Shown: positions 1,259 through 26,305 of the stretch, piece after piece
How positions within the stretch are numbered: the first letter of the stretch is position 1
Layout of the letters: each line of letters begins with the position of its first letter
Origin: Escherichia coli O157 typing phage 4
Strand: one strand, 5' to 3'
Sequence record: KP869102
DNA: 64,000 bases
Notes under the pieces: generated by a model
Database searches by the model: none
Told to the model about the DNA's origin: nothing
What the model saw: only the letters and a program-made list of their open reading frames with translations
Translations under genes and position numbers: made by a program

Positions 1259-1341
1259 TATGGAATCTCCGATTTTATTTGAACAACATAGAAGGAGACA
1301 CTATTTTAGCATCCCCTTCTGTAAATTACAATAGGTATTTG

Positions 1342-1587: not shown

Positions 1588-1604
1588 CTTAAGGTCTCCT
1601 GATA

Positions 1605-2618: not shown

Positions 2619-2621
2619 GTA

Positions 2622-2876: not shown

Positions 2877-2952
2877 CTTGGCAGTCTCCTTAGTTATTTA
2901 AAAATCACCGATCTGTTTGTGTGAAGCATCTTATATCTAATCTTACTTCTTG

Positions 2953-7592: not shown

Positions 7593-7650
7593 AAAGTGTT
7601 CTCCTTAAAGGGGAGGCGGTTGTACTACCCCTCCCACTCTTTGTTAAACA

Positions 7651-9729: not shown

Positions 9730-10513
9730 TAATTCTGCTCCTTACTACAGGCTCGTTTGCTAAGAATACGGCTTTTGCCCAGCCACGTGGTGTGAGGCTT
9801 CGAATCATCTTCGTTCTTGCACTCTTTCCACCCAGCTTGGCGTGTTGCATGGAATACCCGCTAACCACGTCAACTATTTGCGGGACAGGTTTTGTGGCCG
9901 GGATTATAAATCCATTACCTATCCAGCCGCAAGTTATTTTTGGATAGGCATCACGTGGAGCTATAAATTCAGGAAACCATGGGTTTACATCATCTTCCGG
10001 TAAATACCCGCCATAGTCAGAAGGATGAAAACGGTAATCAGGTTTGCGCCACAGTGTGGACATAACACCTACAGGATTCTCTACATGCCACGGGCAATCG
10101 TAAATCTCTCCCAGCTCTTCCGCAACCCGAGCATCCCTTACAGCATTAATTTGGATCATGGGGTCCTTAGCCAGCTTTTTCTTAAAATGTGCAGCACCTG
10201 ATACCGCTAAATGCGTGCACGGAGGAAATGCAAGAATAAAGTCTGGAGCTGGGTACATGCAAAAAGTTTCCTGAGGGAACCATGGGTCAATCCAATAATC
10301 CACATAGTGAATGTTGGGATGATCGGTTATCACCTCTGCATAACTGCCGTGATCAGCACCTTCTGCATTAAAGCACAGGCACAGATACCCAGCTTTTGCC
10401 CAGTCAATGACTGCACCACCAGATCCGTCAAATAGGCTCCACACAACACCTTTGTGGTAGTGTTCTTTGTAGATAAATTTCAATTTGCTGTCTCCTAATG
10501 CAAAAAGCCCCAC
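9719..10513 (-). CDS. short C5-cytosine methyltransferase-like protein (no obvious target-recognition domain)
   Basis: Motif I-like LFDGSGG, motif IV-like FPPCTHLAVSG, motif VI-like ENPVGV; track start is GTG inside an upstream hairpin, TTG near 10483 with AGGAGA RBS is more likely. Confidence 0.6.
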   Translation of the reverse strand: MGLFALGDSKLKFIYKEHYHKGVVWSLFDGSGGAVIDWAKAGYLCLCFNAEGADHGSYAEVITDHPNIHYVDYWIDPWFPQETFCMYPAPDFILAFPPCTHLAVSGAAHFKKKLAKDPMIQINAVRDARVAEELGEIYDCPWHVENPVGVMSTLWRKPDYRFHPSDYGGYLPEDDVNPWFPEFIAPRDAYPKITCGWIGNGFIIPATKPVPQIVDVVSGYSMQHAKLGGKSARTKMIRSLTPRGWAKAVFLANEPVVRSRINGK

Positions 10514-10534
10514 CCTTTCGGGCAGGGCCTAGTG

Positions 10535-11017
10535 TTAAACCCGGATACCTATTGTATACTCGGTGGATACCAATGTCAAATCTAAATTTAAAATTTCTTG
10601 CATCTCATAATATGCGTCCAGGGTGAGATACATTTCCCCATCCTTTTCTACATACTTGTCCAAGTGCTTGAGGCATTTCGGATAACTATCGAGTGCAGCT
10701 TTCAGACACTCAAACTCTGTGCTGTTGATGAGTCCTTCCATCTTGGCTACCCGTTCTGGGGTAACGATAGCACTGTAGTGAGATTTAGCTTCCTGAATGC
10801 AATGGGTCCAAGCATCAACTTTCTCTTCGAAAAGCCCGAAGAATTTCTTTTTGGTGAGCTTCAGATTCTTTAAGTGCTTAAGCACTCGGTTGCCGATCAC
10901 AGCCACATCACGAAACTTAAGGATCACTTTGTCGATATCCTCGCGGCCTATTTTCACAAAGCAAGCCTCACACATTTCAGGAGCTGCGTAACCTACTTTC
11001 CACATAAAATCTGACAT
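10535..11017 (-). CDS. hypothetical protein
   Basis: ORF track 160 aa. Confidence 0.5.
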   Translation of the reverse strand: MSDFMWKVGYAAPEMCEACFVKIGREDIDKVILKFRDVAVIGNRVLKHLKNLKLTKKKFFGLFEEKVDAWTHCIQEAKSHYSAIVTPERVAKMEGLINSTEFECLKAALDSYPKCLKHLDKYVEKDGEMYLTLDAYYEMQEILNLDLTLVSTEYTIGIRV

Positions 11018-11029
11018 AACACTATCTCC

Positions 11030-11428
11030 TTATTCTTCCTGAAAAGCAACGATATCATATGAACTTGCAGACGATCCTGGTGAAGAATGACTCCAGTCTA
11101 GGTCATCAGAGTAGTCAGCGTACTGTGCACCACTACGTAGTTTATATTTTACCCACTTACCTGGTGCAGGGTTTTCACCACCTTCCCATACTTCCCAGCC
11201 TTCTGGCAGGCCGTCCTGGGAATAGTCATCCACCTCACTAATAATCTTAGGGTTTGGCACCAAGATCCCTGCAGGCTCTTCCTTCCGGATAAGTGTCCAC
11301 ACAACGTAGGTGTCTGAGCAGGCGCATGATAGCAAAGTATATCCACTATTCAGAACTTCTGCAAGCTCTTTTTCAGCATCTTCCAATTTGGTTAAGTGGT
11401 ATTGGAGAATCTTCACACCTGTAATCAT
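11030..11428 (-). CDS. hypothetical protein
   Basis: ORF track 132 aa. Confidence 0.5.
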   Translation of the reverse strand: MITGVKILQYHLTKLEDAEKELAEVLNSGYTLLSCACSDTYVVWTLIRKEEPAGILVPNPKIISEVDDYSQDGLPEGWEVWEGGENPAPGKWVKYKLRSGAQYADYSDDLDWSHSSPGSSASSYDIVAFQEE

Positions 11429-11772
11429 CAGAAACCTCCCACTTCTTCGGCAAATGCAGCTGCTGTCGTCGCTGCATCCAGATAGGACTCTAGTTCACGG
11501 GCTGCACGTTTGTAAATTGAGTGGCGAATATCGTTTGGCAGTTGGTGGAAGTCCACCTCTTCACCGTTGTGGTAAACATGCACATCAGTGATCTGTCTAA
11601 ATCCGTAATAGTCAACATCAGAATCACGGCACTCCGGGTCTGGCAACTGGACAACTGCCTGAGCTTCTACAGTGAACATATCGTCAAGTTCGAAATCGAT
11701 TTCAAAAGTGTATGGTTTATAACGTTTCATCATTTGATTGTACTCTTTATTGATCAGACTTATCTTTCGCAA
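11428..11772 (-). CDS. hypothetical protein
   Basis: ORF track 114 aa. Confidence 0.5.
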   Translation of the reverse strand: MRKISLINKEYNQMMKRYKPYTFEIDFELDDMFTVEAQAVVQLPDPECRDSDVDYYGFRQITDVHVYHNGEEVDFHQLPNDIRHSIYKRAARELESYLDAATTAAAFAEEVGGF

Positions 11773-13072
11773 TTAAGGTCGGGGCAAGTTTGTAATAACG
11801 GAAGCCACCACCACCTTGCCAGTTTACAGACTTAGAAATACCACCTTGATCTTCCCCATCGATCACTTTTTCCAAGCGCGGAATAATATGGGTATGGCAA
11901 TGATCACCAATCTCGATGGAGATCCAACGTCTTTTCATCTTGTGAGCTACAGCGGCAGTAGTTCCCGAACCACCGAATGAATCCAATACCAAATCACCTT
12001 CTCGCGTACACATTTCGAAAATCCGCTTCAAAAGCGCTTCTGGTTTTTTCCCATTTTTGAAACTAACGCCGCCTTCATTTGCTATTCCATTCCAACTAAT
12101 GTCTGTCCAAACATCAGTTATTAGTTCCGCAGGTTGCATATCACCGTCAATTTCCAAAAGCCTGTTGGAGTAAAAGACCATTTGCCTACCATTTGCGATA
12201 TAAAATCCTTCAACATCCTCATTTGGATGTACATAAACCTTATCCCTATCTTTCTTTGACTTCTCTATAGTTTCTTTTCTCTTTATTTTAGCACCACCAC
12301 CAATTGCAACAGATTGAAATACACGTTCTGCATTATCAATTGCAAATTGTGCTAATTCATCATCGAATGTGTCAGGCAGTTTTTTCTTGGCTTCTTTTGC
12401 ATCTTTATAGCCATTGGCCTTTGCAAACGCATCGGCAATACCGCACCACGTCCAATTTTTATAATGATCATCCGGGTTTAATAGGTATTTGTTATATCCG
12501 GTATCATACCCTTTAGGTATATAGATTTTGTTAAGCGGTTTCTGGGTGCGATCTTTTGCATATACAAGCAAAAAGTTTGCTGTGGAGAAAACTGTGGCTC
12601 CTGTTGCCTTAAATCCCGAAGGGGAATTTGTGGTCATCGATATGGTATTTAACTGATTTGCACGACCAAAAATCTCGTCCATCAAAACTTTTAAATACGC
12701 CATTTCGCAATCATCTAAGTGAACGAATATTACCCCGTCATCACTTAGAAGATTACGAATTATTTCTAACCTATCCCTCATTAAGCCCAACCAAATGGAA
12801 TGCTCCAGACTATCATCGTAGTGCTCAAAAGCCCTCCCGGTGTTGAATGGTGGGTCTATGTAAACACACTTCACTTTGCCTGCGTACTCTTGCTCTAGCG
12901 CCTTCAATGCTAATAAGTTATCTCCAAAAATCAGCTTATTATCAAAAATATCGTTTTCGGTAACTCTCTGGCTGTGGTAAGACTTACTCGAATCTTCTAA
13001 CAAAATGTGCGGCTCTAATTTTTTGCGCTCGTTTTTACCTATCCAGGTAAGTTCTAATTTGGTTTTGCTCAT
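11747..13072 (-). CDS. DNA amino-methyltransferase (N6-adenine or N4-cytosine), beta-class motif order
   Basis: 441 aa; motif IV VYIDPPFNTG near N-terminus, motif I DSFGGSGTT near C-terminus. Confidence 0.8.
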   Translation of the reverse strand: MSKTKLELTWIGKNERKKLEPHILLEDSSKSYHSQRVTENDIFDNKLIFGDNLLALKALEQEYAGKVKCVYIDPPFNTGRAFEHYDDSLEHSIWLGLMRDRLEIIRNLLSDDGVIFVHLDDCEMAYLKVLMDEIFGRANQLNTISMTTNSPSGFKATGATVFSTANFLLVYAKDRTQKPLNKIYIPKGYDTGYNKYLLNPDDHYKNWTWCGIADAFAKANGYKDAKEAKKKLPDTFDDELAQFAIDNAERVFQSVAIGGGAKIKRKETIEKSKKDRDKVYVHPNEDVEGFYIANGRQMVFYSNRLLEIDGDMQPAELITDVWTDISWNGIANEGGVSFKNGKKPEALLKRIFEMCTREGDLVLDSFGGSGTTAAVAHKMKRRWISIEIGDHCHTHIIPRLEKVIDGEDQGGISKSVNWQGGGGFRYYKLAPTLIAKDKSDQ

Positions 13073-13133
13073 CGTTTGGTGCTCTCCTTAGTTTTTTGTG
13101 GGGAGGAGGCCTCCCCTTTATACTCACATCTTA

Positions 13134-13475
13134 CTACTCAAGGTCTTCAGAGTCAAGCTCAAAAAGAATCAAACTGTGCATGCCTGCAGAGAGATCAACA
13201 CACCCTGCAACAATAAGGGTCTGATAGTAAGGTTCAGCACCCTCGATGTCTTCGTTAAAATCCACAACAAGGTAGTCACCTTTGTTAAAGGTGTATTTGT
13301 CCGATGTGAATGCAAAACCTGCCCAGTCCCCTACTGCAGGATCTTTATCAGTCACCTTTGTTAGCAGTAGATCTTTTTCACGAGATCTTTTAGTAAAATC
13401 GTGAATCACAACATCCTTCTCTTCAGGAGTTGGATTGCCACACACGTAGTTAACGATATTTCTCCACAAACTCAT
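13134..13475 (-). CDS. hypothetical protein
   Basis: ORF track 113 aa. Confidence 0.5.
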   Translation of the reverse strand: MSLWRNIVNYVCGNPTPEEKDVVIHDFTKRSREKDLLLTKVTDKDPAVGDWAGFAFTSDKYTFNKGDYLVVDFNEDIEGAEPYYQTLIVAGCVDLSAGMHSLILFELDSEDLE

Positions 13476-14842
13476 ACGTCCCCCTCTTCGGCTCTGGTTT
13501 CAAAATCTTTCCTGACAATTTTGTCTAAGTCAGGGAATGTTGTATTGTAAAACTCTACGACTCGCGGGTCAACAATAATGTCAACTTCTCTTAGTGGACG
13601 CAACAAGTTTATTCCTTGTATTGTCTTAACTCTGCTCAAAGCGACATACGTCATCCCAGGAGAGAAAGCTCCGTTCTTTCCAAGGTCTAGGTTGTAACAA
13701 TCTAGCGTAAGTCCTTGACTTTTATGAGATGTTACGGCGTACCCAGATTTCAGAGGAAGTTGCTTGTATGACCCAATCACTACCCTCTCTATAAACTTCT
13801 CCATCTTCCTTTCTGCAATGTTGTATCTCTGAGATGGCTTATACTCGTTATTCTCCCACAACCTCTGCTCTATGTCAACCTGTGTTCCATCTTCAAGCTC
13901 TACCACCACCGCCTTGTTCTTAAATTTAACAATTGTGGCACGTGTTCCGTTAACATAATAAGGTACTTTGTGCGTCGGGTCAACATCGTTGGCGGTTATC
14001 ATAACTTTCATGCCAATTTTCAACTTCATCTCCTGCTCAACTGGCAGGGTGGAGGGAAACTTACCCTTCATTTCCCCAGTGTATACCTTCTCCGGGGCGT
14101 TGATGGCATCATAGAACCTTCTGTTCACTTCCTCTGCTTGTTTGTTGGTGGCGCAAATTGTGAGAGCGTCTGTTGGTACACCGCCTTTGTAACAGCGAGC
14201 ATTAAGTTCTGCTACAACCTCTTTTATGCGACGACCCTCACGAACACAGTTGAGCATTGTGGCAAATCGAATAGACTCCTGTCGGAACTGATCTATTAGG
14301 GCTATGTTGTGGAGGTCAAGCTCTTTCCAAGATTCGGTATAGCAACACAGGTCTGTATGGTAGAAGTTGAAGTAGGCTTCCTTCTCCATAGAAGAGACAA
14401 CAGGAGGTGCCTGGTAAAAATCGCCAAACAATATGACCTGTATGCCTCCGAAAGGTTTGTCATTTTTTCGAAGGAAGCGAAGTTTCCTATCCATCTCTAT
14501 AAACTTATCAGCACGGATCATAGAGATTTCATCGATAATCAGGATGGTAAATGCCTTGCTTTTCAAAGGCTTTGCTGTTTTTGCCCTTATTGCGGTCCAG
14601 TCTGACTCCATGCTCACACCTGCTGCAAGATCGAAGGTTCGGTGTGCTGTTGCTCCATTAACGTTTAAAGCGGCTACCCCTGTCGGGGCAACCGTTATGC
14701 AAGAGTCTCCATACATTGACTGGATCATGTTGATGAGGTACGTCTTCCCACAACCTGCGGGTCCTGAAACGAAGACATTCTCACCGCTCATGATTGCAAC
14801 GAGGGCAGCATCTGTGCCTACATCATACTGCCCTTTTTCCAT
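13472..14842 (-). CDS. SF1 DNA helicase, Dda/Pif1/RecD-like
   Basis: 456 aa; Walker A GPAGCGKT; IIDEISMI; C-terminal YAVTSHKSQGLTLD. Confidence 0.85.
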   Translation of the reverse strand: MEKGQYDVGTDAALVAIMSGENVFVSGPAGCGKTYLINMIQSMYGDSCITVAPTGVAALNVNGATAHRTFDLAAGVSMESDWTAIRAKTAKPLKSKAFTILIIDEISMIRADKFIEMDRKLRFLRKNDKPFGGIQVILFGDFYQAPPVVSSMEKEAYFNFYHTDLCCYTESWKELDLHNIALIDQFRQESIRFATMLNCVREGRRIKEVVAELNARCYKGGVPTDALTICATNKQAEEVNRRFYDAINAPEKVYTGEMKGKFPSTLPVEQEMKLKIGMKVMITANDVDPTHKVPYYVNGTRATIVKFKNKAVVVELEDGTQVDIEQRLWENNEYKPSQRYNIAERKMEKFIERVVIGSYKQLPLKSGYAVTSHKSQGLTLDCYNLDLGKNGAFSPGMTYVALSRVKTIQGINLLRPLREVDIIVDPRVVEFYNTTFPDLDKIVRKDFETRAEEGDV

Positions 14843-16047
14843 TACGCCTCCTCGTAAAGAATGTCGATAGTGTTACCGTCTCGGTCAACCACGTATTCAA
14901 TCGGGTCTCCGTCCTTGCGTGCTTCCGGAGCTACCACAATCTCATAGCGGCATGCACGGCACTTAGCGCTATTGTGTTGGTATGGCACACTAACCACATC
15001 TGCAGGGTCAACCATGACAGTCATTACAGTGCCGTAGCTCTTCGCATACTCTTTGCTGGCGCAGTGTAAGCCATAGGAGCACGCAGCTTCAGGATCATCC
15101 TCTACAAAGTTACGAGGCATGGATACAAAAGCACCTTGGTATTGTGGGACTTTACCACTGTGCCAATCCACCCACTTGCTACCGTTAAACTGAACCCCTT
15201 TGTAGCAAATGATTCGACCATCTTCTGCAATCTGAATATCATTGGCCTGCATAAAATCGTAGAGCATGTTTACAGATTTTGCAGAAGGATTGCGTAGCAG
15301 GCGAACGAGGAATTTCACATAGCGGTCATCCAGCGTTCCGTCTGCATAATCTTTCTCAATTTTCTTTGCAATGGTGGATCGCATCTCTACACCGTAGTAG
15401 TAGAGCTTACCATCTTTCATGATCAGGTTGTCTGCAAGTGTGGTGAACTCATTCTTGCGTTCCAGCCAGACAAGGATTTCACCAATTGCCTCGTCATATT
15501 CCTGAACAGAGATATGGTCGAAGACTTTCTGGTAAACTTCCTCACTTTCGCTGCGGCGAATTTCAAAAATGCCTTCGTTGCAGGTGATCTGGAGGAGTTC
15601 CCCACAAATAACTACCAAAGGCTCGATGCTTCGAGTTTGTTGCTGAGACACACTGCTCACCACCTCCAGCACCGGATCTTTGACTTCTACTAAAGGTTCT
15701 TCTGACTTGATTGCCACCCCAGTGAACCCCACACCGTGAACAACACACAGTGGGTATACCACGCCCCAACGTTTAACGGAACCTTCGCCTAAGTCTAAGA
15801 TCATGGCGTACTTACCATTATCTTCCAATCCATAGCGGAATAAACGGGCCTCTTCGCGGGTTTCAAAATCCTCACGGGTGTAGCAGACGCTGTCACGGTC
15901 AGGATCGAACAACTCTGGGGCACCCACTGCCAGTGTCCAGGTTGTGTCGCCTTTCTCAATGGCACATGTGAAACCCTTCTTCTCAAGTTCTGCACGGCGG
16001 TCTCGTGCTTCTTTACGGGTTTTGAAATGTTCGTAGATGAAAATCAT
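14842..16047 (-). CDS. hypothetical protein, putative rIIB-like (by position next to rIIA-like gene)
   Basis: 401 aa; ATG with AAGGAGA RBS; the contig overlap places it directly downstream of the rIIA-like gene; no diagnostic motif. Confidence 0.5.
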   Translation of the reverse strand: MIFIYEHFKTRKEARDRRAELEKKGFTCAIEKGDTTWTLAVGAPELFDPDRDSVCYTREDFETREEARLFRYGLEDNGKYAMILDLGEGSVKRWGVVYPLCVVHGVGFTGVAIKSEEPLVEVKDPVLEVVSSVSQQQTRSIEPLVVICGELLQITCNEGIFEIRRSESEEVYQKVFDHISVQEYDEAIGEILVWLERKNEFTTLADNLIMKDGKLYYYGVEMRSTIAKKIEKDYADGTLDDRYVKFLVRLLRNPSAKSVNMLYDFMQANDIQIAEDGRIICYKGVQFNGSKWVDWHSGKVPQYQGAFVSMPRNFVEDDPEAACSYGLHCASKEYAKSYGTVMTVMVDPADVVSVPYQHNSAKCRACRYEIVVAPEARKDGDPIEYVVDRDGNTIDILYEEA

Positions 16048-16120
16048 CTTGGTCTCCTTATTTGATGTTATTCTTTGTATCGATCAGTTCACGGTATTCA
16101 ATCATAGCAGGAGTGTCCCA

Positions 16121-16130
16121 NNNNNNNNNN
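16121..16130. other. assembly gap (N10)
   Basis: Run of 10 N. Confidence 0.95.
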
Positions 16131-16440: not shown

Positions 16441-16450
16441 NNNNNNNNNN
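16441..16450. other. assembly gap (N10)
   Basis: Run of 10 N. Confidence 0.95.
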
Positions 16451-16605
16451 GCACGATTGCATACCTTTGACAGATAATCTCATTACAGAGCGTTTAAGAG
16501 CTTCCTACAAACAAATCTCTCTTTCGAGCGTAGCGAGAACGCACGTCCGTTTTGACCCAAATCACCATACGCTCGGATTTTAACCAAACCCTCGCGGCGT
16601 TTCTA

Positions 16606-16634
16606 TTGACACATTACCGCTCCAGTGATAATAT
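16606..16634 (+). promoter_or_regulatory. sigma70-type promoter (TTGACA-17-TAATAT)
   Basis: -35 TTGACA at 16606-16611, 17-nt spacer, -10 TAATAT at 16629-16634; ATG at 16667 follows. Confidence 0.5.
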
Positions 16635-16666
16635 CCACACATAGTTTGTAGAATATGGGGTACACT

Positions 16667-16756
16667 ATGAGAACATTGTCCGAAGTTTTGGTGGTGATCC
16701 TGATGATCATTACGTCCATAGCGGCTGTTGCCGGAATACTCACGGGTGGAACATGA
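16667..16756 (+). CDS. hypothetical 29-aa hydrophobic micropeptide
   Basis: Manual ORF MRTLSEVLVVILMIITSIAAVAGILTGGT just downstream of the promoter; weak RBS. Confidence 0.35.
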   Translation: MRTLSEVLVVILMIITSIAAVAGILTGGT

Positions 16757-16965
16757 TAAACACACATGCATCTGAAGAGACATCCAAAGGAGTGACTATA
16801 TGTCCCTTGGCTGAGCCAGTGAAAGAGGAAAACTTCGATTCTGAAGATTCTCCATCTTCGCTCCAGGTAGATCCTGAGGCTGATGACCTAACGTGGGAAG
16901 ACATCGTAGATATCTGGTTCTCTATTATGCCTGAGCACGAAGAGTTCAGGGGTGGTAGACTATGA
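16753..16965 (+). CDS. hypothetical acidic protein
   Basis: ORF track 70 aa; same strand as promoter; no clear RBS. Confidence 0.3.
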   Translation: MINTHASEETSKGVTICPLAEPVKEENFDSEDSPSSLQVDPEADDLTWEDIVDIWFSIMPEHEEFRGGRL

Positions 16966-17086
16966 AGCACCGAGCCCACACAGGTTCCTCATGCTAAAGC
17001 ATGGCCTGAAGAGGCAAACGTGCATAATTCCTGTACATTGGGACGTATAAAACCCTGTTCACATTCTCATTTCCAGAGGAGATTTC

Positions 17087-17302
17087 ATGAAGATAGAAAT
17101 ATTTGGTGGAGCTGACAATACTCGTGGCCTGATTTACCTTGAATTCGATGAATCATACCTGCCAGAGGTGTTAAATATGGACTCTGTTGCTGATGCTTTG
17201 GGAGTAAGTCCTAAAGATCTCTACTCTGGTGCTGAGATTGATGGTTGGGAGGAGACCATGAACATTGATTTCAGTGAAGTAGGTGATGAACCACTGGACT
17301 GA
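17087..17302 (+). CDS. hypothetical acidic protein
   Basis: ORF track 71 aa; RBS AGGAGA upstream of ATG. Confidence 0.5.
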   Translation: MKIEIFGGADNTRGLIYLEFDESYLPEVLNMDSVADALGVSPKDLYSGAEIDGWEETMNIDFSEVGDEPLD

Positions 17303-18142
17303 CACACAATTAGCTACCCGGCTAAAGTGCTGGGAGCACCTATAACACATCTTTCAACTAAATTTCCTACCACCACAATCACTTACCTCCCACACATGAC
17401 TGTTTGCTTGTTTAGTGAGCAGTCATGCCTTGACATTCTTGCCTATCCTGATAAAATTAAGTTCTTCTCTTTTCTTTTACCGAGTAATTCGGGTTTTCTG
17501 TTCTCTTCGGTTTGAAGGGGTATGGAGATACACCTGAGTGAACAGGGTGAACAACCGAACATTTGGCTATGGCATTAGCATGGCGAAGCGGACGGGTGAC
17601 GAAAGAGGGGCCGGAGGACACCAGTCACTGCCATATGGTATATGGGTGATAACCTGAAGAGTCTGAATAAGTGTTTAAGTACCAGTCAGAGGAAAAGGTG
17701 AATGGTAGCCGAAGGGGGAGGGGGGTTTCTTGTATCTTTAATTTGTATATTATGTATACACTTGTAAACCAATCTCATTTGAATTTGTTTACCACACAAA
17801 GTGGATAGAGACAAATATTACCTATTAAACTTGAATTATTTATAGAAAATACCACAACACTACTTAAGTCTTTGATTTTACACACAAATCCTGCAGATAT
17901 TCACCCTCCATATTTAACATACTTGTAACATATTCCATACTCTACCTGCCCGATCAATTCACCCAACTACATCCCCATATTTTCCCTGTCTGTACTACCC
18001 CTGCCCCGCCGGGAGTCCCGTCATATCTGGCTTTCCAGCAAATATCACACCCACAAATATCATTGCCTGAAGAGGGTTTCGTCCCATAATACATGCCTTA
18101 CCTGAAGAGCGCTTCATATACCCCGTAAATTTTTTAATTGAC

Positions 18143-18172
18143 CCCCTCCCCGCCGCCGGAGGGGTCGGCTTT
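18143..18172 (+). terminator. possible intrinsic terminator hairpin (weak T-run)
   Basis: Stem CCCCTCC/GGAGGGG with loop CCGCCGCC followed by TCGGCTTTTCC. Confidence 0.25.
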
Positions 18173-18719
18173 TCCCACACAGACCTGAAGAGTCAGCCAG
18201 AAATATCTGAATGGACCCAATTCTGCCCTGTTATGAGCCGTAGCGACTGGAGTGCTGCCAGGCGGACGAAATGGGAATACTTCTCATTCTTATAACAATT
18301 CTCAAATATCGAGGCAGTGAGGCAAATTAATAGGTAAGGCCGTTCACATAGTGGCACAACATTTGCAGTCTATCTGATGTGGTTGAATGAGAATACCTAT
18401 CATTGTGAGAATAGTTATCATTACGGGCAATTTAACATAATACCCATTATGCGCACCACTGGCGATACATACAGGGATTGATAACATGAGTTACTGTTTA
18501 CGCATATAACAATTATATTTCTTATCATTTGTGTGGGATATAGTTAGCAGCCGATAGATTAGATATTGACCTGCGGACTTCTGACCGTCTAGACGTCTAA
18601 ACGCCCACACAACAAGGCTTATACATACATCGCTGAATGTAAACATGGCCGCAAAAATGCTACCATACAAGATTGTAAATTTTTCATGCAGCACTTGACA
18701 AAGAGGAGAAAAACTTGTC

Positions 18720-18762
18720 TGACACTTTAGACATACTGGTGACACAATATGACACTTTAGAC
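18720..18762. repeat. direct repeat, 2 x TGACACTTTAGAC
   Basis: Identical 13-mers at 18720-18732 and 18750-18762. Confidence 0.8.
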
Positions 18763-18779
18763 TTAATTGACATGCCTGA

Positions 18780-18956
18780 CTGTTTACGCTGTCACTATTC
18801 GCGCTATTACTATTCACTCCCTTTACTGTTCACGCTCTTACTGTTTACATGCTTAATGGTTTACATGCTTAATAGACTGCATGTCTAATAGTTTACATAG
18901 CTAACTGTTCACATACTTATCATTTACATGATTGACTGTTTACACAGAGATGATAA
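18780..18956. repeat. iteron-like array of TGTTTAC(A) motifs, including a tandem 16-bp unit
   Basis: (C)TGTTTAC at 18782, 18843, 18859, 18891, 18948 plus variants CATTTACAT, CTGTTCACAT, CTTTACTG; GTTTACATGCTTAATG twice in tandem at 18843-18874. Confidence 0.75.
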
Positions 18957-18963
18957 GCCATGA

Positions 18964-19234
18964 CATTCGTTTGCATGACAATAATTAACAAGATAACAAT
19001 TGACAAGCTAACAGCCAACAAGCTGACAATTAACTTGTTTACAATAGATGACATAATATAAAAGCAGGGCAACTATTAGAAGATCTATAGTTGCCTTGCT
19101 TGTTATGTCATGATTAACTAAATACAAGGCAACTATGATCTGATTAATAGTTTGCAAACAAACTATCACGGGGGTGATGGTTACTGCTTTTATATTATGT
19201 CGCGACTCCGTCGCGCCATGCCATTCGTTTGCAT
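18964..19234. repeat. 13-bp direct repeats CATTCGTTTGCAT bracketing the palindromic element
   Basis: Copies at 18964-18976 and 19222-19234. Confidence 0.8.
19050..19201. repeat. 152-bp element bounded by perfect 18-bp inverted repeats with nested palindromes (MITE-like or cruciform-forming)
   Basis: GACATAATATAAAAGCAG at 19050-19067 is the exact reverse complement of 19184-19201; internal inverted copies of AGGCAACTAT/ATAGTTGCCT and palindrome ATAGTTTG..CAAACTAT. Confidence 0.75.
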
Positions 19235-19850
19235 AGTTGCCTTATTGTTACAGATAAAATAATTGTATTGTTAATTATTTCTTATCTTTCTATTAGTCAT
19301 CTAATGATTCCAGTCAATATAGTAATGTACAGTAAACATTAGACGACTAAAGATTTATCTGCTTATAATAACTTACCGTGACAATTTCGGACTGTTTACG
19401 AAAAATGTTGGCACCTAAGCTGATTTATGTTATGCAGTTTACACGAATAATTATTTTATGCAGGTATTGACTATTCCATTATTCTATGGTTGGAATAAAT
19501 ACTTAGCAGACTATAGAATGGTGAGCGTACGTAAATTCTGAGATCTGGCGGCTATAGTTATACTCGATTTTTCACGTAGAGCACGCTTTTGTGGTTATGT
19601 AAGTGTATGACTTATAAAGATTTTTAGTTGTTGACAAGACACTGAAGATATGCATCAGGTTAAATTTTGTGCAATAGCTGCATTACGTGCAATTTTGGAA
19701 GGAAAAACGGGTAAAAATAGCCCTGCTACCACACAATGAAAAGTTATGCAATAGTTATTTTACATGTATATTTGTACAGTGTGTGGGGTTGATGGCTCGT
19801 CAATTATTCCACTTGCCAGGTAGGGCCGTTTATGGTAGGGGGAAGATCAG

Positions 19851-19876
19851 ACAAAAAGAAAGGGGCCTAAGCCCCT
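19851..19876 (-). terminator. intrinsic terminator
   Basis: Hairpin AGGGGC-CTAA-GCCCCT preceded on plus strand by an A-run (U-run on minus transcript), just downstream of the 19896 gene end. Confidence 0.55.
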
Positions 19877-19895
19877 TGATAATTCAGTTAAAAAA

Positions 19896-20315
19896 TTATA
19901 ATGATTCGTATATTTCAAAAATCCGATTTGCCAGGTCGTTACGGTACCGGAATTTTTCATCACGTTTGATCATAAGATCTTTATAGCCGTACTCTTTAAG
20001 CACTTCATTAACTTTATGGCGGCACACCTTCATATTATCCTGAGCGTCACCAATAAACCTGTTGCTATGGTGCATGGCTTTAATTTCTTCTTCCAGGACC
20101 AGGGCAACTATGCGGACCGGATCAAGCTGATAGGCGGTAACATCAATGCGGCATTGTAAACGGCTTTTTACGTCTGCCACCGGATATACTGCAACCTCTT
20201 CCCCGTCAACATTGACAATAATTAGTTTACCATCGATTTCGAATCCTTTCGCCGCCGGACCGTGACAAAAAGCGTTATCAAAGCTATATGCCGGATTATT
20301 AGATTTAATGTTCAT
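19896..20315 (-). CDS. hypothetical protein
   Basis: ORF track 139 aa; RBS GAGGTAAAAACACC before ATG. Confidence 0.5.
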   Translation of the reverse strand: MNIKSNNPAYSFDNAFCHGPAAKGFEIDGKLIIVNVDGEEVAVYPVADVKSRLQCRIDVTAYQLDPVRIVALVLEEEIKAMHHSNRFIGDAQDNMKVCRHKVNEVLKEYGYKDLMIKRDEKFRYRNDLANRIFEIYESL

Positions 20316-20354
20316 GGTGTTTTTACCTCTTAGTTAATTTTCTTACAACTTCCC

Positions 20355-20383
20355 TTTAAAAAAGAATATAGCAAAACTGCCGA
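20355..20383 (-). promoter_or_regulatory. sigma70-type promoter (TTGACA-17-TATATT on minus strand)
   Basis: Reverse complement gives TTGACA, 17-nt spacer, TATATT upstream of the 20315 start. Confidence 0.45.
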
Positions 20384-20460
20384 TCCTTGTCAATAAGGAT
20401 AGCATAATTTTTATGTGATCAAGGGGCTTTATTGCCCCCCTGACCATGTAACTTGTTGTA

Positions 20461-20724
20461 TTATTTGTTATTCATCCAGTTTTCCCAAGCTGCCTGATAA
20501 TCTGCTTCACTGCGGCGGATCTCTTCTTGCTCTTCAAGTCGGATCTCTTCTTCCAGGTACCCCAGGATATCGGCTTTTTTGGTCTGGCGTAACATCCAAT
20601 CATCTTTTTTACGGGTAAAGATCTTATATGCTTTCTCGCAAACCTCTTTTTTGCTACCTTTTTGGACTTCAAGAACTTTGTAGGCCATGTACTGAACTAG
20701 TTTGAGCTGATCAAGACGTTTCAT
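20461..20724 (-). CDS. hypothetical protein
   Basis: ORF track 87 aa; RBS AGAGGT; preferred over the overlapping 20472-20672 frame. Confidence 0.5.
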   Translation of the reverse strand: MKRLDQLKLVQYMAYKVLEVQKGSKKEVCEKAYKIFTRKKDDWMLRQTKKADILGYLEEEIRLEEQEEIRRSEADYQAAWENWMNNK

Positions 20725-20784
20725 GATGTTTACCTCTTTATGCGGTTCTGATTAGTGGGCCTTTTGGCCCGTGTCATTATCTTA

Positions 20785-21057
20785 TTACTTATGGCGGCAG
20801 AATTCAAGCGTTTTTAATTGATAATCTTCCTCAGCCTGGAGTACGACCGCCTCGATCATTTCGTTGGCATTGTTAAAGCCATAACCTTTAGCGAAATCAT
20901 CCGCGCCACCTTCGTGATCATGTTCTGCGTTCATCGCTTCCACAAAATGGAATTCCAAATTGTTGAGGTAGGGGCTTGATGTTCCGTCCTCTTTTTCGAT
21001 GAGATCCCAAATAGCATTAAAACGTGATTCTACTTCTTGATTAATCCAGCTTGACAC
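20785..21057 (-). CDS. hypothetical protein
   Basis: ORF track 90 aa. Confidence 0.5.
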   Translation of the reverse strand: MSSWINQEVESRFNAIWDLIEKEDGTSSPYLNNLEFHFVEAMNAEHDHEGGADDFAKGYGFNNANEMIEAVVLQAEEDYQLKTLEFCRHK

Positions 21058-21268
21058 AGTGTTTTCCTCTCTTCTGGTTGTTGTGTGGGCACTTTTGCCC
21101 CTTCAAGATAAATGTTACCCCACCCCATGGCAGATGTCAACGGTTTTTATAGTTCTTATATGACAGGCAGGCCCGGTGATTGTCTCCCCCCGTCGCCAGG
21201 TGCCTGCCGTGAAACAAGTATAACAAAAAACAGGACCATTGCAAGCCCTGTTTTGTAGTTTATAAATA

Positions 21269-21460
21269 TTATATTTTTTCGCCTATGTAGTCCGGTCGGT
21301 TTTTCTCTGTCATGCGCTTTAGCAATTCTTGCATGTTGCTTATGGCTTGTAGTGTATCCCCTTCCAGGCTTGAATCGACATAATCAGGATCGTCTATGAC
21401 CTTTCTATGATTATGATAACGCAGTACCGCCAATACCTTTCTGACTTGTTCGATATTCAT
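21269..21460 (-). CDS. hypothetical protein
   Basis: ORF track 63 aa. Confidence 0.45.
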   Translation of the reverse strand: MNIEQVRKVLAVLRYHNHRKVIDDPDYVDSSLEGDTLQAISNMQELLKRMTEKNRPDYIGEKI

Positions 21461-21472
21461 TTTTACCGCTCT

Positions 21473-21607
21473 TTAAAACAAGGTGCCAACCGTTTCCAAT
21501 AGATCACTGACTGCCAGGACAATACCGATCAGCACATATCTAACCATAAGGGGAAAGAGCGCCAATATTGCCACCACAATCCCCAAGGTGATAATTATCT
21601 TTCTCAT
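21473..21607 (-). CDS. hypothetical 44-aa membrane peptide
   Basis: Manual ORF MRKIIITLGIVVAILALFPLMVRYVLIGIVLAVSDLLETVGTLF; below the track length cutoff; abuts the upstream gene. Confidence 0.35.
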   Translation of the reverse strand: MRKIIITLGIVVAILALFPLMVRYVLIGIVLAVSDLLETVGTLF

Positions 21608-21609
21608 GG

Positions 21610-21903
21610 TTAACGGTTCACGTAAGTTTTCCCGTTCACGGTTATGGGCAGATCCTCCAGGTCTGGATCTTCCTTAAGGTCGCGAGCAAGCTCACCGCAC
21701 CGGATACCCTCGAATCCGTAGTACTCTGTTGTGCCGTCCTTAAAAGTTTTAGCGGCAAGGCATAAGCGATAAGTAACCCCGATTTGATTGACGGCATGAA
21801 TATCCGTTAGATTAACCTCTTTTGCCAGCTCTTTAGCCATTACAGGCGCATTAAGTCCAACAACCAGGGCAACCACTGCGATCATCTTTTTCATTGTGTC
21901 CAT
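21610..21903 (-). CDS. hypothetical secreted protein (N-terminal signal peptide)
   Basis: 97 aa; N-terminus MKKMIAVVALVVGLNAPVMA. Confidence 0.55.
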   Translation of the reverse strand: MDTMKKMIAVVALVVGLNAPVMAKELAKEVNLTDIHAVNQIGVTYRLCLAAKTFKDGTTEYYGFEGIRCGELARDLKEDPDLEDLPITVNGKTYVNR

Positions 21904-21985
21904 CCTCTTTCTGCTACGTTTAAGGCGGCGGTAACCGCCTGTTTATGCTTTGTTGGTTAATTTTCGGGTATAGGTATAAATTAAA

Positions 21986-22201
21986 CTATGCTGTACGCTC
22001 AACTATAACAACGGCTTGAGGGATCTCACCTTCAACCACTATCAAGGCTTTTTTCTGCGTGATAGATATCTTTACCCGCTTCAGCGTGGCGGTAAAATCT
22101 TTCATTTCGTCACGTGGTGTTTTAGTGCAATACCAGATCTCAGGCTTGCCGATCTGTAAGTTGCGTAAAAATTCTGTTTTGCCTGTTTTGTTAGTGATCA
22201 T
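21986..22201 (-). CDS. hypothetical protein
   Basis: ORF track 71 aa. Confidence 0.45.
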   Translation of the reverse strand: MITNKTGKTEFLRNLQIGKPEIWYCTKTPRDEMKDFTATLKRVKISITQKKALIVVEGEIPQAVVIVERTA

Positions 22202-22210
22202 TTGGCAACC

Positions 22211-22315
22211 TCACCCGATACCGTTGGAAGACAAGATCGCATTAGCCATGGTTGCAATCAGGCCAATACCCAGGGCAATAACCAAGATCACTGCATCGAT
22301 TAATTTCTGTTTCAT
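22211..22315 (-). CDS. hypothetical 34-aa membrane peptide
   Basis: Manual ORF MKQKLIDAVILVIALGIGLIATMANAILSSNGIG; weak RBS. Confidence 0.35.
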   Translation of the reverse strand: MKQKLIDAVILVIALGIGLIATMANAILSSNGIG

Positions 22316-22392
22316 GGTGTTTATTCTCTTCTGTTAGTAACCTTATTCATGGGGCCGCTACCACAGCCCCAAGGTAAGGCAGCTATGTGCTT

Positions 22393-22638
22393 TTAGTGTT
22401 TCATTCCAACCATCGCGGCACGGATCGCCGTAGTGCTGTACTTGAAGCCGTCCGGGGTCTTATCTTGTCCGGTTAGCTCCAGAAAAAGCATCATATCCCG
22501 CGCCGCATCATTACGATTAGCATTGGCGTTAATAAAGCCTTGGGCCAACCGGTACAATGACTCATCGTTATTAATCCAAAGGCTTACATTCCAATGAGTT
22601 TTGTTTTTGTAACCGTTATAACCTTTATTGCTTTTCAT
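22393..22638 (-). CDS. hypothetical protein
   Basis: ORF track 81 aa. Confidence 0.5.
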   Translation of the reverse strand: MKSNKGYNGYKNKTHWNVSLWINNDESLYRLAQGFINANANRNDAARDMMLFLELTGQDKTPDGFKYSTTAIRAAMVGMKH

Positions 22639-22729
22639 GGTGTTTACCTCTTCTTTGTTCCAGGTGGCGGATCATTCTACCACCTTATGTATTATGCTTT
22701 GTTAGATGGTTGTTTGTTGTCAAACTATT

Positions 22730-22909
22730 TTACCGATAATCATCATATGCTTTATTTACCTGGCGAATATAACATTCAAAAGCCAAATCAATAGATTTAT
22801 ATTCACGGATATACTCACCATAGGAAACCACATACATTTCTATAGCTTCCTCATATGCGAGGAGAATAGAATCTAAGCCTACGATCTCAGTCTTTGCAAT
22901 AATAGCCAT
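22730..22909 (-). CDS. hypothetical 59-aa protein
   Basis: Manual ORF MAIIAKTEIVGLDSILLAYEEAIEMYVV... with RBS AAGAGGA upstream. Confidence 0.45.
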   Translation of the reverse strand: MAIIAKTEIVGLDSILLAYEEAIEMYVVSYGEYIREYKSIDLAFECYIRQVNKAYDDYR

Positions 22910-22985
22910 GATTTTTTATCCTCTTTGTGGTTGGTGGGGTTCGTTGCCCCCTTTGATTTATATATTACAGTCTTATATGGTCATG

Positions 22986-23219
22986 TCAACTATTTTCAAA
23001 AAATTTTTCTGCTGTGATATTCTTCCCGGTAGGGTTCGCTACTTTCAAAATTTTATCATGCACTGGACGCCCAAAAGAATAAGCGCCGTACACAGTAAAC
23101 CAATAATCGCCGTCAGGTTGTACTATTACTGCCGCATATGGTACGCCTTTTTCGTTTTTGCTGACAAAATAGATCACGTTGCCATTAATAGCCTCGGCGC
23201 GTTTAATTTGTTCCATCAT
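22986..23219 (-). CDS. hypothetical protein
   Basis: ORF track 77 aa. Confidence 0.5.
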   Translation of the reverse strand: MMEQIKRAEAINGNVIYFVSKNEKGVPYAAVIVQPDGDYWFTVYGAYSFGRPVHDKILKVANPTGKNITAEKFFENS

Positions 23220-23275
23220 GATGATTTGCCTCTCTTTATTTTCATAATTGGGGGGCCTTTTCGGCCCCGCCAGGT

Positions 23276-23626
23276 TTATTTATTGATAGCGTGCAGCGGG
23301 AAAGGTACGCCAGGTTGATAGATAACCTTTACAACCTCATCAGGACAAAAGAAGTTGCAGAACTCACCGCAATAGGCCTCATCCTCTTTCAACTCTTCAT
23401 CAACATACTCAAAAAAGTAGTCGATGCTTGGATAATCTTGACCAGGGTTATAATCAACCATAGTGAGGACCAGTTCAAGATCATTGCGGATGATATGCAT
23501 ACCAGCTTTTAAATACTTCGCTTCCATTTTTACTACATCGCCAGCGGTAACAATAGCCATGGTTTTAACTCCTGTTTCTGTTAATGATTGGAGGCATAAC
23601 CCCCCTCGACAACTCTTATTATCCAT
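23276..23626 (-). CDS. hypothetical protein
   Basis: ORF track 116 aa. Confidence 0.5.
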   Translation of the reverse strand: MDNKSCRGGLCLQSLTETGVKTMAIVTAGDVVKMEAKYLKAGMHIIRNDLELVLTMVDYNPGQDYPSIDYFFEYVDEELKEDEAYCGEFCNFFCPDEVVKVIYQPGVPFPLHAINK

Positions 23627-23785
23627 ATTGTAGGGCTTGATGCAAGTACTTCTTTAAAAAATTTTTAAGTGCCTTGGAGGCCGCTGTAACGCCAAAATAA
23701 TAAAGGCCATGCAACCGCATAGCCTTTATGTGATTATATCGCTGCAGGCCCTGCTAGGGGCCTTATTTTGCATCATTTGCCGGAA

Positions 23786-24094
23786 CTATACAGAGAAAAC
23801 ATCGTTCACAATAGCGATCACAATGCCGCCCACCTTGTCACGGTCAACAATGCACAAATCACCATAGATCATGTGGTAGTCTGGATGATCTTTCACGGAA
23901 TAGTCAATGAGCGTTTTCTTGTCGTCCAGCTTTGTAACTTCCATTCTCATAACGATATGAGAATCATCAAAGGCATTATTCCGAAAAGTCATAGCCTGAC
24001 CACCAGGGCACCCAGTGATCTCCACTTCCACACCGTCTACGATCTGACCATCAAAGAAATAAAGATTATTAGCCAGGATAAACATGTTTATCAC
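23786..24094 (-). CDS. hypothetical protein
   Basis: ORF track 102 aa. Confidence 0.5.
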   Translation of the reverse strand: MINMFILANNLYFFDGQIVDGVEVEITGCPGGQAMTFRNNAFDDSHIVMRMEVTKLDDKKTLIDYSVKDHPDYHMIYGDLCIVDRDKVGGIVIAIVNDVFSV

Positions 24095-24177
24095 TCCTTG
24101 TTAACTGCGTGTTATTTTACCACGATTAAAATTTACTTTACTGATGGCCCTGGCGTCAAGGCCATCTAAAAATAAAT

Positions 24178-24378
24178 TTACAGGCCTACAATCTCTTTGA
24201 TTCGTTTAACTGCTGCCTCAGCGCCTTGGGGGTAGAAATTATGGTAACCGATCACGCGAGTGATACTAATCGCAGTTTGATGATCTTCATAATAGCCCTT
24301 GAAGATTTCTTGACCGTCAATCAGCACGGCAATTTTTTCTTCTTTTTTGAAGTTAATAACGCGGATATTGTTGCTCAT
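24178..24378 (-). CDS. hypothetical protein
   Basis: ORF track 66 aa. Confidence 0.45.
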   Translation of the reverse strand: MSNNIRVINFKKEEKIAVLIDGQEIFKGYYEDHQTAISITRVIGYHNFYPQGAEAAVKRIKEIVGL

Positions 24379-24493
24379 TTTGTTTCTCCTTTCTGGTTTT
24401 TGTGTTGGTGGGGATTAGCTCCCCGTTGATTATTATTATCCATATTTCGGACCGGATTGCAACACCCCGGAAGAAAAATTTTTTGAAAAAGTT

Positions 24494-24517
24494 AGGCCCC
24501 CAGGGATCGGGGGCCGT
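24494..24517 (-). terminator. intrinsic terminator
   Basis: Hairpin GGCCCCC-AGGGATC-GGGGGCC preceded on plus strand by an A-rich run. Confidence 0.5.
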
Positions 24518-24519
24518 TA

Positions 24520-24639
24520 TCAGTTACTTACAGCGATAAAATACATCCCTACGCCTAACAATATTTCAAGGGCGATGATCTCAAGCCATACCATAACCCG
24601 GCGCACCTTATCGGTGCGGGGCTTATCCTTGGTTGTCAT
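24520..24639 (-). CDS. hypothetical 39-aa membrane peptide
   Basis: Manual ORF MTTKDKPRTDKVRRVMVWLEIIALEILLGVGMYFIAVSN; strong RBS AGGGGGAGA. Confidence 0.45.
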   Translation of the reverse strand: MTTKDKPRTDKVRRVMVWLEIIALEILLGVGMYFIAVSN

Positions 24640-24881
24640 CGTCTCCCCCTTTCATCCTGGTAGTAGTGACGTGGTTTACAATGGCCCCCAGGAGTACCAT
24701 CACCACGCACATCACAAGAAAAATTATCTCTGTCGTTGTTCGATCCATTGTTATAAAATTCCTTAAGATCAGGCCTGAAAATAAAGCGTTCGTTATTGAA
24801 TCCATCACGCCAGGCGGCTGGCTTCAAATCTTCATCAAAGGGATTAATTAACGTGGTATTATTTAAACGGCTGGCCCACAT
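24636..24881 (-). CDS. hypothetical low-complexity protein
   Basis: ATG at 24881 with GAGAGGAA RBS; preferred over the RBS-less overlapping frame 24623-24808. Confidence 0.4.
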   Translation of the reverse strand: MWASRLNNTTLINPFDEDLKPAAWRDGFNNERFIFRPDLKEFYNNGSNNDRDNFSCDVRGDGTPGGHCKPRHYYQDERGRR

Positions 24882-25263
24882 ATTTTCTATTCCTCTCAAA
24901 TAGGCGATCCGCCTCAGTTAAACAAATCTCATGGGCGTGATCTCTGGTTTTAGCTTCATCGAAAACCTGTTGTGCAAGGCTGCAGCGTAGGGAGACTGGA
25001 AGATCACTATAATAGGCGTTGACAAATGTTTGCGCGTCATACAGGTCGGAAAATACTTTACCCTTTCTATTATCGCCTTTGTCAACAATTGCAAGGATAA
25101 CAAGTACAATAGTTGCAACCACCCCCAGGAAAATAGATATAATAAACCATAAAAAGGCGGATCTACCCATCTTGCCAGCGATCCAGGCGTTAAACAAGGC
25201 AACTAATACGGCCAAAATAATAAATTCCATTCTATGTACCTCTTTTGCAGTTCTGTTTAACAA
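24859..25263 (-). CDS. hypothetical membrane protein
   Basis: 134 aa; two hydrophobic helices (FIILAVLVALFNAWIAG and FLWFIISIFLGVVATIVLVILAIV). Confidence 0.5.
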   Translation of the reverse strand: MLNRTAKEVHRMEFIILAVLVALFNAWIAGKMGRSAFLWFIISIFLGVVATIVLVILAIVDKGDNRKGKVFSDLYDAQTFVNAYYSDLPVSLRCSLAQQVFDEAKTRDHAHEICLTEADRLFERNRKYVGQPFK

Positions 25264-25294
25264 TAAGGCGGCAAATATGCCGCCTGTTACCTGA

Positions 25295-25675
25295 TTAAAA
25301 ATTATCGCCGTAAATCTTTCCGCTTTCTGCCCACACCACCACGCGGGGCATACTATCCCACACGTCTTGTTTTAGATTGAGCGCGTGCAATTCTTCGGTG
25401 GTGCCCATACCAGGCACGGGCTGATTGTATACTGCAAAACGACCACCTGCATAATCATAGGCCAGGGTTAAATCACACTGAATCATCTTTTTGATCATGG
25501 CGTTGAGCATAGCGTTAGCCGCATACTGGTCACGTTTTAAAGGCAACTCTTTGATTAGTTTGCGATAGTTTTCAATGTGATCGCACACTGTTTCACGTGG
25601 AAGATCTTTCATATCCTCGCGAAAGGTAACCAGGTTAAACATAACGGTGTCAATAGCTTTAGTAGTGTTTTTCAT
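25295..25675 (-). CDS. hypothetical protein
   Basis: ORF track 126 aa. Confidence 0.5.
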   Translation of the reverse strand: MKNTTKAIDTVMFNLVTFREDMKDLPRETVCDHIENYRKLIKELPLKRDQYAANAMLNAMIKKMIQCDLTLAYDYAGGRFAVYNQPVPGMGTTEELHALNLKQDVWDSMPRVVVWAESGKIYGDNF

Positions 25676-25766
25676 AATGTTTTCCTCTTTGTTTTGTGTG
25701 GGGCAAACGTCTTGCCCCCCCTTGAGTTTTAATATAGCAAGTTTTTAGATTATTGCAACACTTTAT

Positions 25767-26295
25767 TTATGAAAAACTCATCTCTCCATATTCATCCACA
25801 TCAAACCGCCAATCATTGGCCTCAATAAGGCCGATCAGGTTTTCGGTAGTGAACTGTTCTAGATAGGCCTCCTCCAGGTCTACGTAAACCTTGCGGGATA
25901 GCTCCCGTACCGTCTCGGTGATCAGCTCTTCCAGGTCTTCCACTTTGTTTTCTTGTTTGGCGGTCAGATCTAGCCAGGTGGTATCAATGTATCCGCTTAC
26001 AGTGTTTTCATGGCTGTAATGGCTGTACTTGTCGCGTTCAATACTGGCTGATAACTCGCCATCGTGCATTGTGCCAAACAAGTGACGAATTGATCGGAAC
26101 TTGGTCAGGGCCTTTACTTTACGCAAGAATTTTTCTAAATCCACGTTTTCAGCACTGATTGACGCGCCGTCACCCTGGCACCAAAAGCCGGACCAATGTA
26201 CATCGGTATCTTCAAGGCCGTACTCTGGAAAAACTTGCTCTTTATAATATTCAATTACACTTTCTGCGAAAAAATCCTCTCCGCTGTGTTCTTCT
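25767..26295 (-). CDS. hypothetical protein, N-terminus cut off by the assembly gap
   Basis: Track reports 125 aa from an internal GTG, but the frame stays open upstream to the N-run at 26296. Confidence 0.5.
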
Positions 26296-26305
26296 NNNNN
26301 NNNNN
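26296..26305. other. assembly gap (N10)
   Basis: Run of 10 N. Confidence 0.95.

Follow-up and report, generated by a model that had tools for sequence, protein, structure and literature searches.

Why should a nine-nucleotide word recur, letter for letter and in a single orientation, in phage DNA that is not coding? The question is raised by Escherichia coli O157 typing phage 4 (sequence record KP869102), from which a stretch of 64,000 nucleotides, referred to here as the window, was analyzed. The word, CCTGAAGAG, starts at positions 17005, 17653, 18066, 18101 and 18184 of the + strand (Table 1). An original prediction, drawn from the bare sequence, had located the last four of these copies exactly while overlooking the one at 17005, and had proposed that the repeats either bind a protein or are an element that small transcripts share. 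The copies are exact, non-coding, non-random and conserved, and the three proximal ones lie 68–195 bp from a genome end that has been mapped experimentally in relatives. Our answer, offered tentatively, is that all five are cis-acting DNA recognition boxes, set in the same orientation, that serve a phage protein in the processing or packaging of the genome end.

The repeat cluster and its conservation

When the count was set against shuffled sequence, as the original prediction had proposed, the window was found to have seven copies of the word on both strands where 0.52 were expected, a number not reached by any of 100 dinucleotide-preserving shuffles of the window. For the cluster itself, five exact copies in 1.2 kb compare with an expectation of ~0.01; all five point the same way, with spacings of 648, 413, 35 and 83 bp between successive copies. 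The complete genome of the near-identical phage JES2013 (136.9 kb) contains nine copies, five of them inside 1.2 kb, and among its 9-mers this one ranks joint first for local clustering, just four 9-mers there having at least four same-strand copies per 1.2 kb. The four dispersed JES2013 copies are all intragenic, are read in frame as CCT GAA GAG (Pro-Glu-Glu) and have no common context; coding copies are found on both strands. Variants with one or two mismatches are not enriched around the cluster, and between 18193 and 19900 the only copy with up to two mismatches is a two-mismatch match at 19641, which is at chance level. Since the dispersed copies are coding and near matches do not gather at this place, the cluster is specific to one locus. 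The objection that the 9-mer might be equally frequent in coding regions, which the original prediction had raised against itself, falls away, the dispersed copies being rare and all of this one codon type.

That the stretch is non-coding, as had been claimed, is borne out by several observations. In reference genomes the + strand genes stop at window position 17302 and the convergent - strand genes at 19896, leaving a gap of ~2.6 kb that the rV5 genome paper labels just "non-coding", without any open reading frames (ORFs); the lengths of its insertions and deletions are not divisible by three, and most of its substitutions are non-synonymous. A coding repeat or micro-ORF was rejected, as copies 3 and 4, being 35 nt apart, are out of frame with each other and the substitutions in the ORF at 17538–17657 are non-synonymous. 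Two smaller claims about context fared unequally. The hexamer CTGAAT, said to follow the word twice, is present at 17663–17668 and 18207–18212. A pyrimidine-rich context, said to precede every copy, exists in the C-rich, G-poor + strand from 17800 to 18100 (GC skew ~-0.5), which comes directly after a G-rich stretch from 17500 to 17800 (skew ~+0.3); it fails at 17653, where the upstream sequence is rich in G and A.

The locus as a whole is 98.8% identical to JES2013 and matches 121 records, nearly all of them Vequintavirus (rV5-like myophages). The window is a scaffolded Vequintavirus draft with runs of ten Ns at 16121–16130, 16441–16450 and 26296–26305, and its contigs are out of reference order (1–16057 corresponds to JES2013 120854–136910, 16451–26295 to 101851–111695, and 26388–56035 to 1–29664), so that gene neighborhoods across the joins are not real. 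The cluster is contained in the single intact contig 16451–26295. Between two N runs, a 309-bp mini-contig (16131–16439) repeats window 21–329 at 98% identity, probably as an assembly variant and not as a true duplication.

Conservation was assessed in an alignment of 12 Vequintavirus genomes that are 88–99% identical across the region, and conservation in relatives, which the original prediction had suggested as a check, was found. All five copies are present throughout, and 44 of the 45 motif columns are invariant versus 85 of 100 flank columns, the lone change being in copy 1 of ECP32, which reads CCTGAAGGG (the other 11 genomes have the word intact). Positions -1 and +1 vary among the 12 genomes, as do the two bases preceding copy 3. 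The probability that three random 9-mers from the same region would match the invariance of the proximal copies 3–5 is P = 0.006. In the scaffolded record A116 copy 5 reads TCTGAAGAG, so that the box variants seen, in ECP32 and A116, each affect a single copy. Because the flanks of the five copies are mutually unrelated, the word itself appears to be maintained, and not to have been left behind by a recent duplication.

These data bear directly on the possibility that the word has no function of its own, and that it recurs by chance or local turnover and is conserved only through regional constraint. The compared genomes do differ little (5–12% divergence), the module that surrounds copies 3–5 has 82% invariant columns and the block around copy 2 has 96%, all of which would suit such an account. 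Against it stand the excess of exact copies over expectation, the invariance of the motif columns while adjacent positions vary, the low probability for the proximal three, and the spacing of 35 bp between copies 3 and 4, constant in 12 of 12 genomes; we therefore regard the absence of a function of its own as very unlikely.

Outside the genus, Septuagintavirus A73 and Phapecoctavirus Ro121c4YLVW have no CCTGAAGAG cluster at the equivalent place, and the motif is therefore genus-specific. Absence from the nearest genera would be expected of a word that co-evolves with a protein peculiar to the genus. A scan of IMG/VR for two copies 16–46 nt apart yielded, among the matches listed, only unrelated contigs without similarity to the window, and most of the lengths among these listed matches are multiples of three.

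The genome end beside the boxes

Terminal repeats of 459 and 458 bp have been reported in Vequintaviruses, namely Gotham (PMC7471380) and EdH4 and HdK5 (PMC6563267). In the records of Gotham and EdH4, two genomes determined independently, the first and last 459 bp are 100% identical, and since both sets of ends map to 18261, where the repeat begins with GGCGGACG, and to 18719, where it finishes with AAACTTGTC, the window shows the arrangement of a concatemer junction. From left to right, this junction consists of the unique right-end sequence with the five boxes, a spacer of variable length, the terminal repeat, and a set of different short repeats. Copies 3–5, invariant in the 12 genomes, are the ones within 68–195 bp of the cut site, and the end of copy 5 is separated from the start of the repeat by 68 bp here and by 100–102 or 118 bp in insertion-bearing relatives. 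The boxes were not found inside the terminal repeat or on its right flank.

We infer that the boxes act as DNA rather than RNA, through binding by a protein with a role in packaging or end processing. In the proposed mechanism, a sequence-specific phage protein would bind the three proximal boxes (18066, 18101 and 18184), candidates being the recognition (small) subunit of the terminase or an accessory end-processing factor. By binding, the protein would mark which side of the 459-bp repeat, single at the junction, is the "right end", and this mark would direct both a precise cut at 18260/18261 and the direction of packaging, in a manner that may be likened to T7/T3 pacB with its CCTAAAG arrays, lambda cosB and P1 pac. 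A signal that gives direction requires sites on a single strand, and this is the orientation that the five boxes have. The protein-binding part of the original prediction thus fits the evidence best, with exact copies, a single orientation, unrelated flanks and invariant motif columns all being consistent with recognition by a putative binder, whereas the part that concerned a shared element of small transcripts is unsupported.

The closest parallel is with T7, which, like this phage, infects E. coli and has a short direct terminal repeat. In both phages, unique sequence beside the boundary of the terminal repeat contains short same-orientation repeats, 3' of a promoter without a gene (phiOR in T7, the promoter at 17430 here), so that same-orientation direct repeats adjoin the repeat boundary in each. 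The right-end units of T7 (L139 820–915, equivalent to T7 39619–39714) include CCTAAAGAG and CATAAAGAG, an 8/9 match to CCTGAAGAG. The T7 CCTAAAG heptamers, which were reportedly named SRL/SRR by Dunn and Studier in 1983, differ in being degenerate, spaced at ~13 bp, and distributed on both flanks of the 160-bp repeat as well as inside it; the boxes described here are exact 9-mers on one flank only and do not form closely spaced tandem arrays of that kind. We know of no established function for the T7 arrays themselves, and a search of the literature on their function and on Vequintavirus transcriptomes gave nothing usable. As a separate observation, T7 AAAAATCTGAGTG, just before the repeat of that phage, resembles AAATATCTGAATG after copy 5.

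A cluster at the equivalent position also exists in a different subfamily: in Phapecoctavirus Mt1B1_P17 (L141 ~2390–2672), ATGGCAA occurs four times, along with one ATGGCGC, within ~260 bp to the left of a verified 328-bp repeat. As in lambda cosB, with its R sites for gpNu1, and in P1 pac, with its hexamer arrays, several short sites are found at ~200 bp or less from a precise or semi-precise terminase cut, and here too they would give packaging its direction; the multiple conserved elements near the cut site that are typical of cosB, pacB and pac correspond here to copies 3–5. The comparison has its limits, since the distance from box to cut varies by 33–50 bp between genomes, unlike the fixed geometry of lambda cosB-cosN, and two of the copies are 0.6–1.25 kb away. 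Moreover, the genus of this phage makes terminal repeats, whereas the cosB and pac systems produce cohesive or headful ends, and binding to the boxes described here is predicted.

Several points weigh against the assignment of the boxes to end recognition. From the last box to the cut site the distance is 68, 100–102 or 118 bp, which is not a fixed geometry; the two distal boxes (17653 and 17005), at 600 and 1250 bp from the end, fit the model less well; and boxes are missing from the repeat and its right flank, where T7 has heptamers. Five identical copies with no degenerate ones make a stricter set than most helix-turn-helix sites. Similarity to the T7 junction lacks significance, with as good a score in 33 of 500 shuffles, and the likeness is therefore analogy, not homology. 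The whole module at 18028–18215 is conserved, so that the boxes may be just one part of a larger signal, and the protein that would bind them is putative.

Table 1. Coordinates of the boxes and of neighboring features (positions in the window; conservation refers to the 12 aligned genomes)
Feature	Position	Strand	Description
CCTGAAGAG copy 1	17005..17013	+	In the gap between the ORF153 and ORF154 homologues (final two + strand genes), 73 nt 5' of the ORF154 ATG
CCTGAAGAG copy 2	17653..17661	+	Within the ultra-conserved non-coding block; TCTGAAT directly 3'; invariant in 12/12 genomes
CCTGAAGAG copy 3	18066..18074	+	Overlaps a weak sigma-70-like site, TTGCCT-16-CATAAT (9/12 matches); invariant in 12/12 genomes
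CCTGAAGAG copy 4	18101..18109	+	35 bp past copy 3, spacing fixed in 12/12 genomes
CCTGAAGAG copy 5	18184..18192	+	Nearest to the genome end; 68-bp gap to the terminal repeat
Ultra-conserved non-coding block	17403..17725	+	323 bp; 95.7% invariant columns, above neighboring genes
Strong sigma-70 promoter	17430..17457	+	TTGACA-16-TAAAAT with upstream TG, 11/12 matches; kept in 12/12 genomes
Terminus-proximal module	18028..18215	+	82% invariant columns
Variable-length spacer	18216..18260		33–50 bp insertions in relatives; ends in the conserved cut-site context GGAGYGCTGCCA (then the cut and GGCGGACG)
Direct terminal repeat	18261..18719		459 bp, one copy as in a concatemer junction; Gotham and EdH4 record ends map here
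Right-flank short repeats	18720..18950	+	TGACAC units, then a TTTACA-type array, ~16 bp period

The terminus-proximal module is made up of a 34-nt invariant run (18030–18063), copies 3–5, an invariant GTAAATTTTTTAATTGAC and a near-invariant CAGCCAGAAATATCTGAA. In the spacer that follows, many genomes have the 33–50 bp insertions (among the relatives, L006, L009, L011 and L012), and these duplicate the cut-site-adjacent box GGAGnGCTGCC, so that in some genomes the sequence leading up to the physical end is present twice. Identity between genomes collapses just right of 18724. There, the TGACAC units, spaced at ~10 nt, differ in copy number among genomes, and they are followed by ~10 units of an (A/T)CTGTTTACA-type motif that has a period of 15–16 bp and is iteron-like.

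Alternative readings of the control region

The boxes share their surroundings with other elements that suggest different functions. The strong promoter at 17430 has no gene downstream and is directed at the genome end, and its transcript would span copies 2–5. The ultra-conserved block, which holds copy 2, terminates in a GGGGGAGGGGGG run (17714–17725) and gives way to AT-rich variable DNA with 61% invariant columns. This block is non-coding, because its substitutions are non-synonymous; it has no Rfam match, its folding z-score is only -1.8, marginally better than shuffles, and it is a candidate for an early non-coding RNA or an R-loop origin primer. Its G-run may resemble the mitochondrial CSBII element. 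An origin of 17400–18260 from the host was rejected, there being no match in 5,426 E. coli genomes. In the AT-rich stretch, TGTATATTATGTATACA at 17735–17760 shares the 11-nt string GTATATTATGT with the E. coli dif site; this is the least conserved part, and the sharing is probably a coincidence.

It is conceivable, if unlikely, that the 9-mers are replication-origin boxes, that is, sites for an initiator or helicase loader, similar to DnaA boxes, around an AT-rich unwinding element (17726–17900), with the promoter at 17430 giving an R-loop or primer transcript that ends at the G5AG6 run. Origins of T7 and T4 are of the promoter-plus-AT-rich type, and the ingredients are at hand: a strong and conserved sigma-70 promoter without a gene, a transcribed, ultra-conserved block that finishes in GGGGGAGGGGGG and is followed by AT-rich DNA, and a stretch of 32% GC at 17700–17900, flanked by the stretches of opposite skew, with two boxes on its left and three on its right. 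The interval was also flagged in the skew analysis of the rV5 paper, but the authors of that paper point out that the skew change coincides with the switch in the direction of transcription. In addition, conservation is lowest in the AT-rich center, which other sequence replaces in two genomes, the three closest boxes adjoin the terminal repeat rather than the AT-rich stretch, and a model based on a promoter and an R-loop does not need boxes, for which there is moreover no known initiator.

The promoter at 17430 falls into one class with the early promoters of rV5 in Table S4 of PMC3606486. A second alternative is transcription control, in which non-canonical, MotA-like promoters of the last gene and of small non-coding transcripts would carry the 9-mer at about -30 as a box for an activator or repressor. 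The MotA box of T4 is likewise a 9-bp element, at -30 of middle promoters, and copies 1 and 3 have a comparable layout, with a -10-like hexamer ~10 nt downstream and no good -35, as activator-dependent promoters would have. Thus, copy 1, itself 73 nt 5' of ORF154, has CATAAT, or TATAAT in some genomes, 9 nt downstream, and CATAAT lies 10 nt past copy 3, where it was called as part of TTGCCT-16-CATAAT. Copies 2, 4 and 5, three of the five, lack a conserved -10 at the matching distance, however, and three genomes carry mutations at key positions of the copy 3 hexamer. Unlike the MotA box, or any promoter class, CCTGAAGAG does not stand upstream of other genes across the genome, and the rV5 analysis gave ordinary sigma-70 and T4-late-like promoters, not this word. 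We consider this account improbable. A sigma-70 or activator-dependent promoter class fits poorly, in that a -10 hexamer is found only at copies 1 and 3 and that the other genomic copies are coding; sigma-32 and sigma-54 promoters were rejected, their matches being partial, confined to single copies and unconserved.

The boxes might instead act in RNA. The early promoters at 16606 and 17430 would then yield a long early non-coding RNA with all five copies, which would serve there as a seed, as a sponge or as a motif to which a protein binds. Every copy is on the strand read from these two strong sigma-70 promoters, copy 2 is inside the ultra-conserved, non-coding, promoter-driven block, and five identical copies would suit recognition by base pairing. 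Structure and family searches do not bear this out, the modest folding score of the block being one case in point. Rfam returned no family even at E <= 10: searches of the whole window at the gathering score, and of 16900–20000 at E <= 10, gave only chance-level microRNA and small nucleolar RNA matches outside the cluster. Folding of the alignment shows no conserved local structure, the 9-nt unpaired probability of CCTGAAGAG is at the 10th to 55th percentile, and a putative GC-rich terminator hairpin at 18142–18175 is not kept by compensatory changes. An RNA role is thereby weakened, and we think it has little chance of being correct.

Specific RNA identities were also set aside. The string CUGAAGA fits the CUGANGA core of a hammerhead ribozyme, but no Rfam hammerhead model matches even at the relaxed threshold, four of the five copies have neither the GAAA element nor a closed stem II, and in copy 2 the base of the would-be stem II shows a G-G clash. 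The same string fits the anticodon loop of the phenylalanine transfer RNA, but the flanks form no stem, and ARAGORN found no transfer RNA or transfer-messenger RNA. An Hfq-type small RNA seed is not supported, since the 9-mer is not predicted to be accessible in RNA and the hairpin lacks compensatory conservation.

Finally, an exact word on one strand could be the target of a strand-specific enzyme, either a site-specific nick site, as in T5, phiKMV and tf, or a Chi-like signal for a helicase-nuclease that enters the right genome end. Phage tf offers a likeness, its nick consensus TACTRTGMC being a 9-mer that occurs 14 times, always on the top strand. As for Chi, the + strand has its 3' end at the right terminus with the copies 0.5–1.7 kb away, and RecBCD requires a Chi-type signal in the orientation of the 3'-ending strand. 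Yet the nick sites of tf, phiKMV and T5 are dispersed along their genomes, whereas the non-coding copies of CCTGAAGAG are confined to 1.2 kb; the word is not the E. coli Chi, its coding copies sit on both strands, and the left genome end has no matching set. A T5/tf-type nick consensus fits poorly with the pattern of dispersal and strand, and an enzyme target of either sort seems to us the most doubtful of the readings considered. A broader variant, in which the boxes are single-stranded or strand-specific signals (a phage Chi-like or nickase signal, or an element that recurs in an early non-coding RNA driven by sigma-70) rather than ordinary duplex sites, is also very improbable. In its first version the signal may act on the 3'-ending strand in the first 0.5–1.7 kb of the right genome end; in the second, a non-coding RNA with the ultra-conserved block and the G5AG6 run may couple transcription to end processing or replication priming.

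Significance for Vequintavirus biology

Few E. coli phages are isolated as often as Vequintaviruses, which have been widely proposed for therapy. To our knowledge, no function has been assigned to the 2.6-kb "non-coding" block of their genomes, and we know of no account of how the 459-bp repeats are recognized and cut. The boxes described here join a known kind of feature, short repeats that lie beside terminal repeats. If they do mark the DNA for packaging or end processing, they would offer an easily mutated handle on DNA recognition in myophages with terminal repeats, would delimit a minimal junction on which packaging or transduction vectors could be built, and would aid annotators in placing true genome ends. 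Should they prove to be origin or RNA elements instead, the boxes would still be the first functional landmarks of this region.

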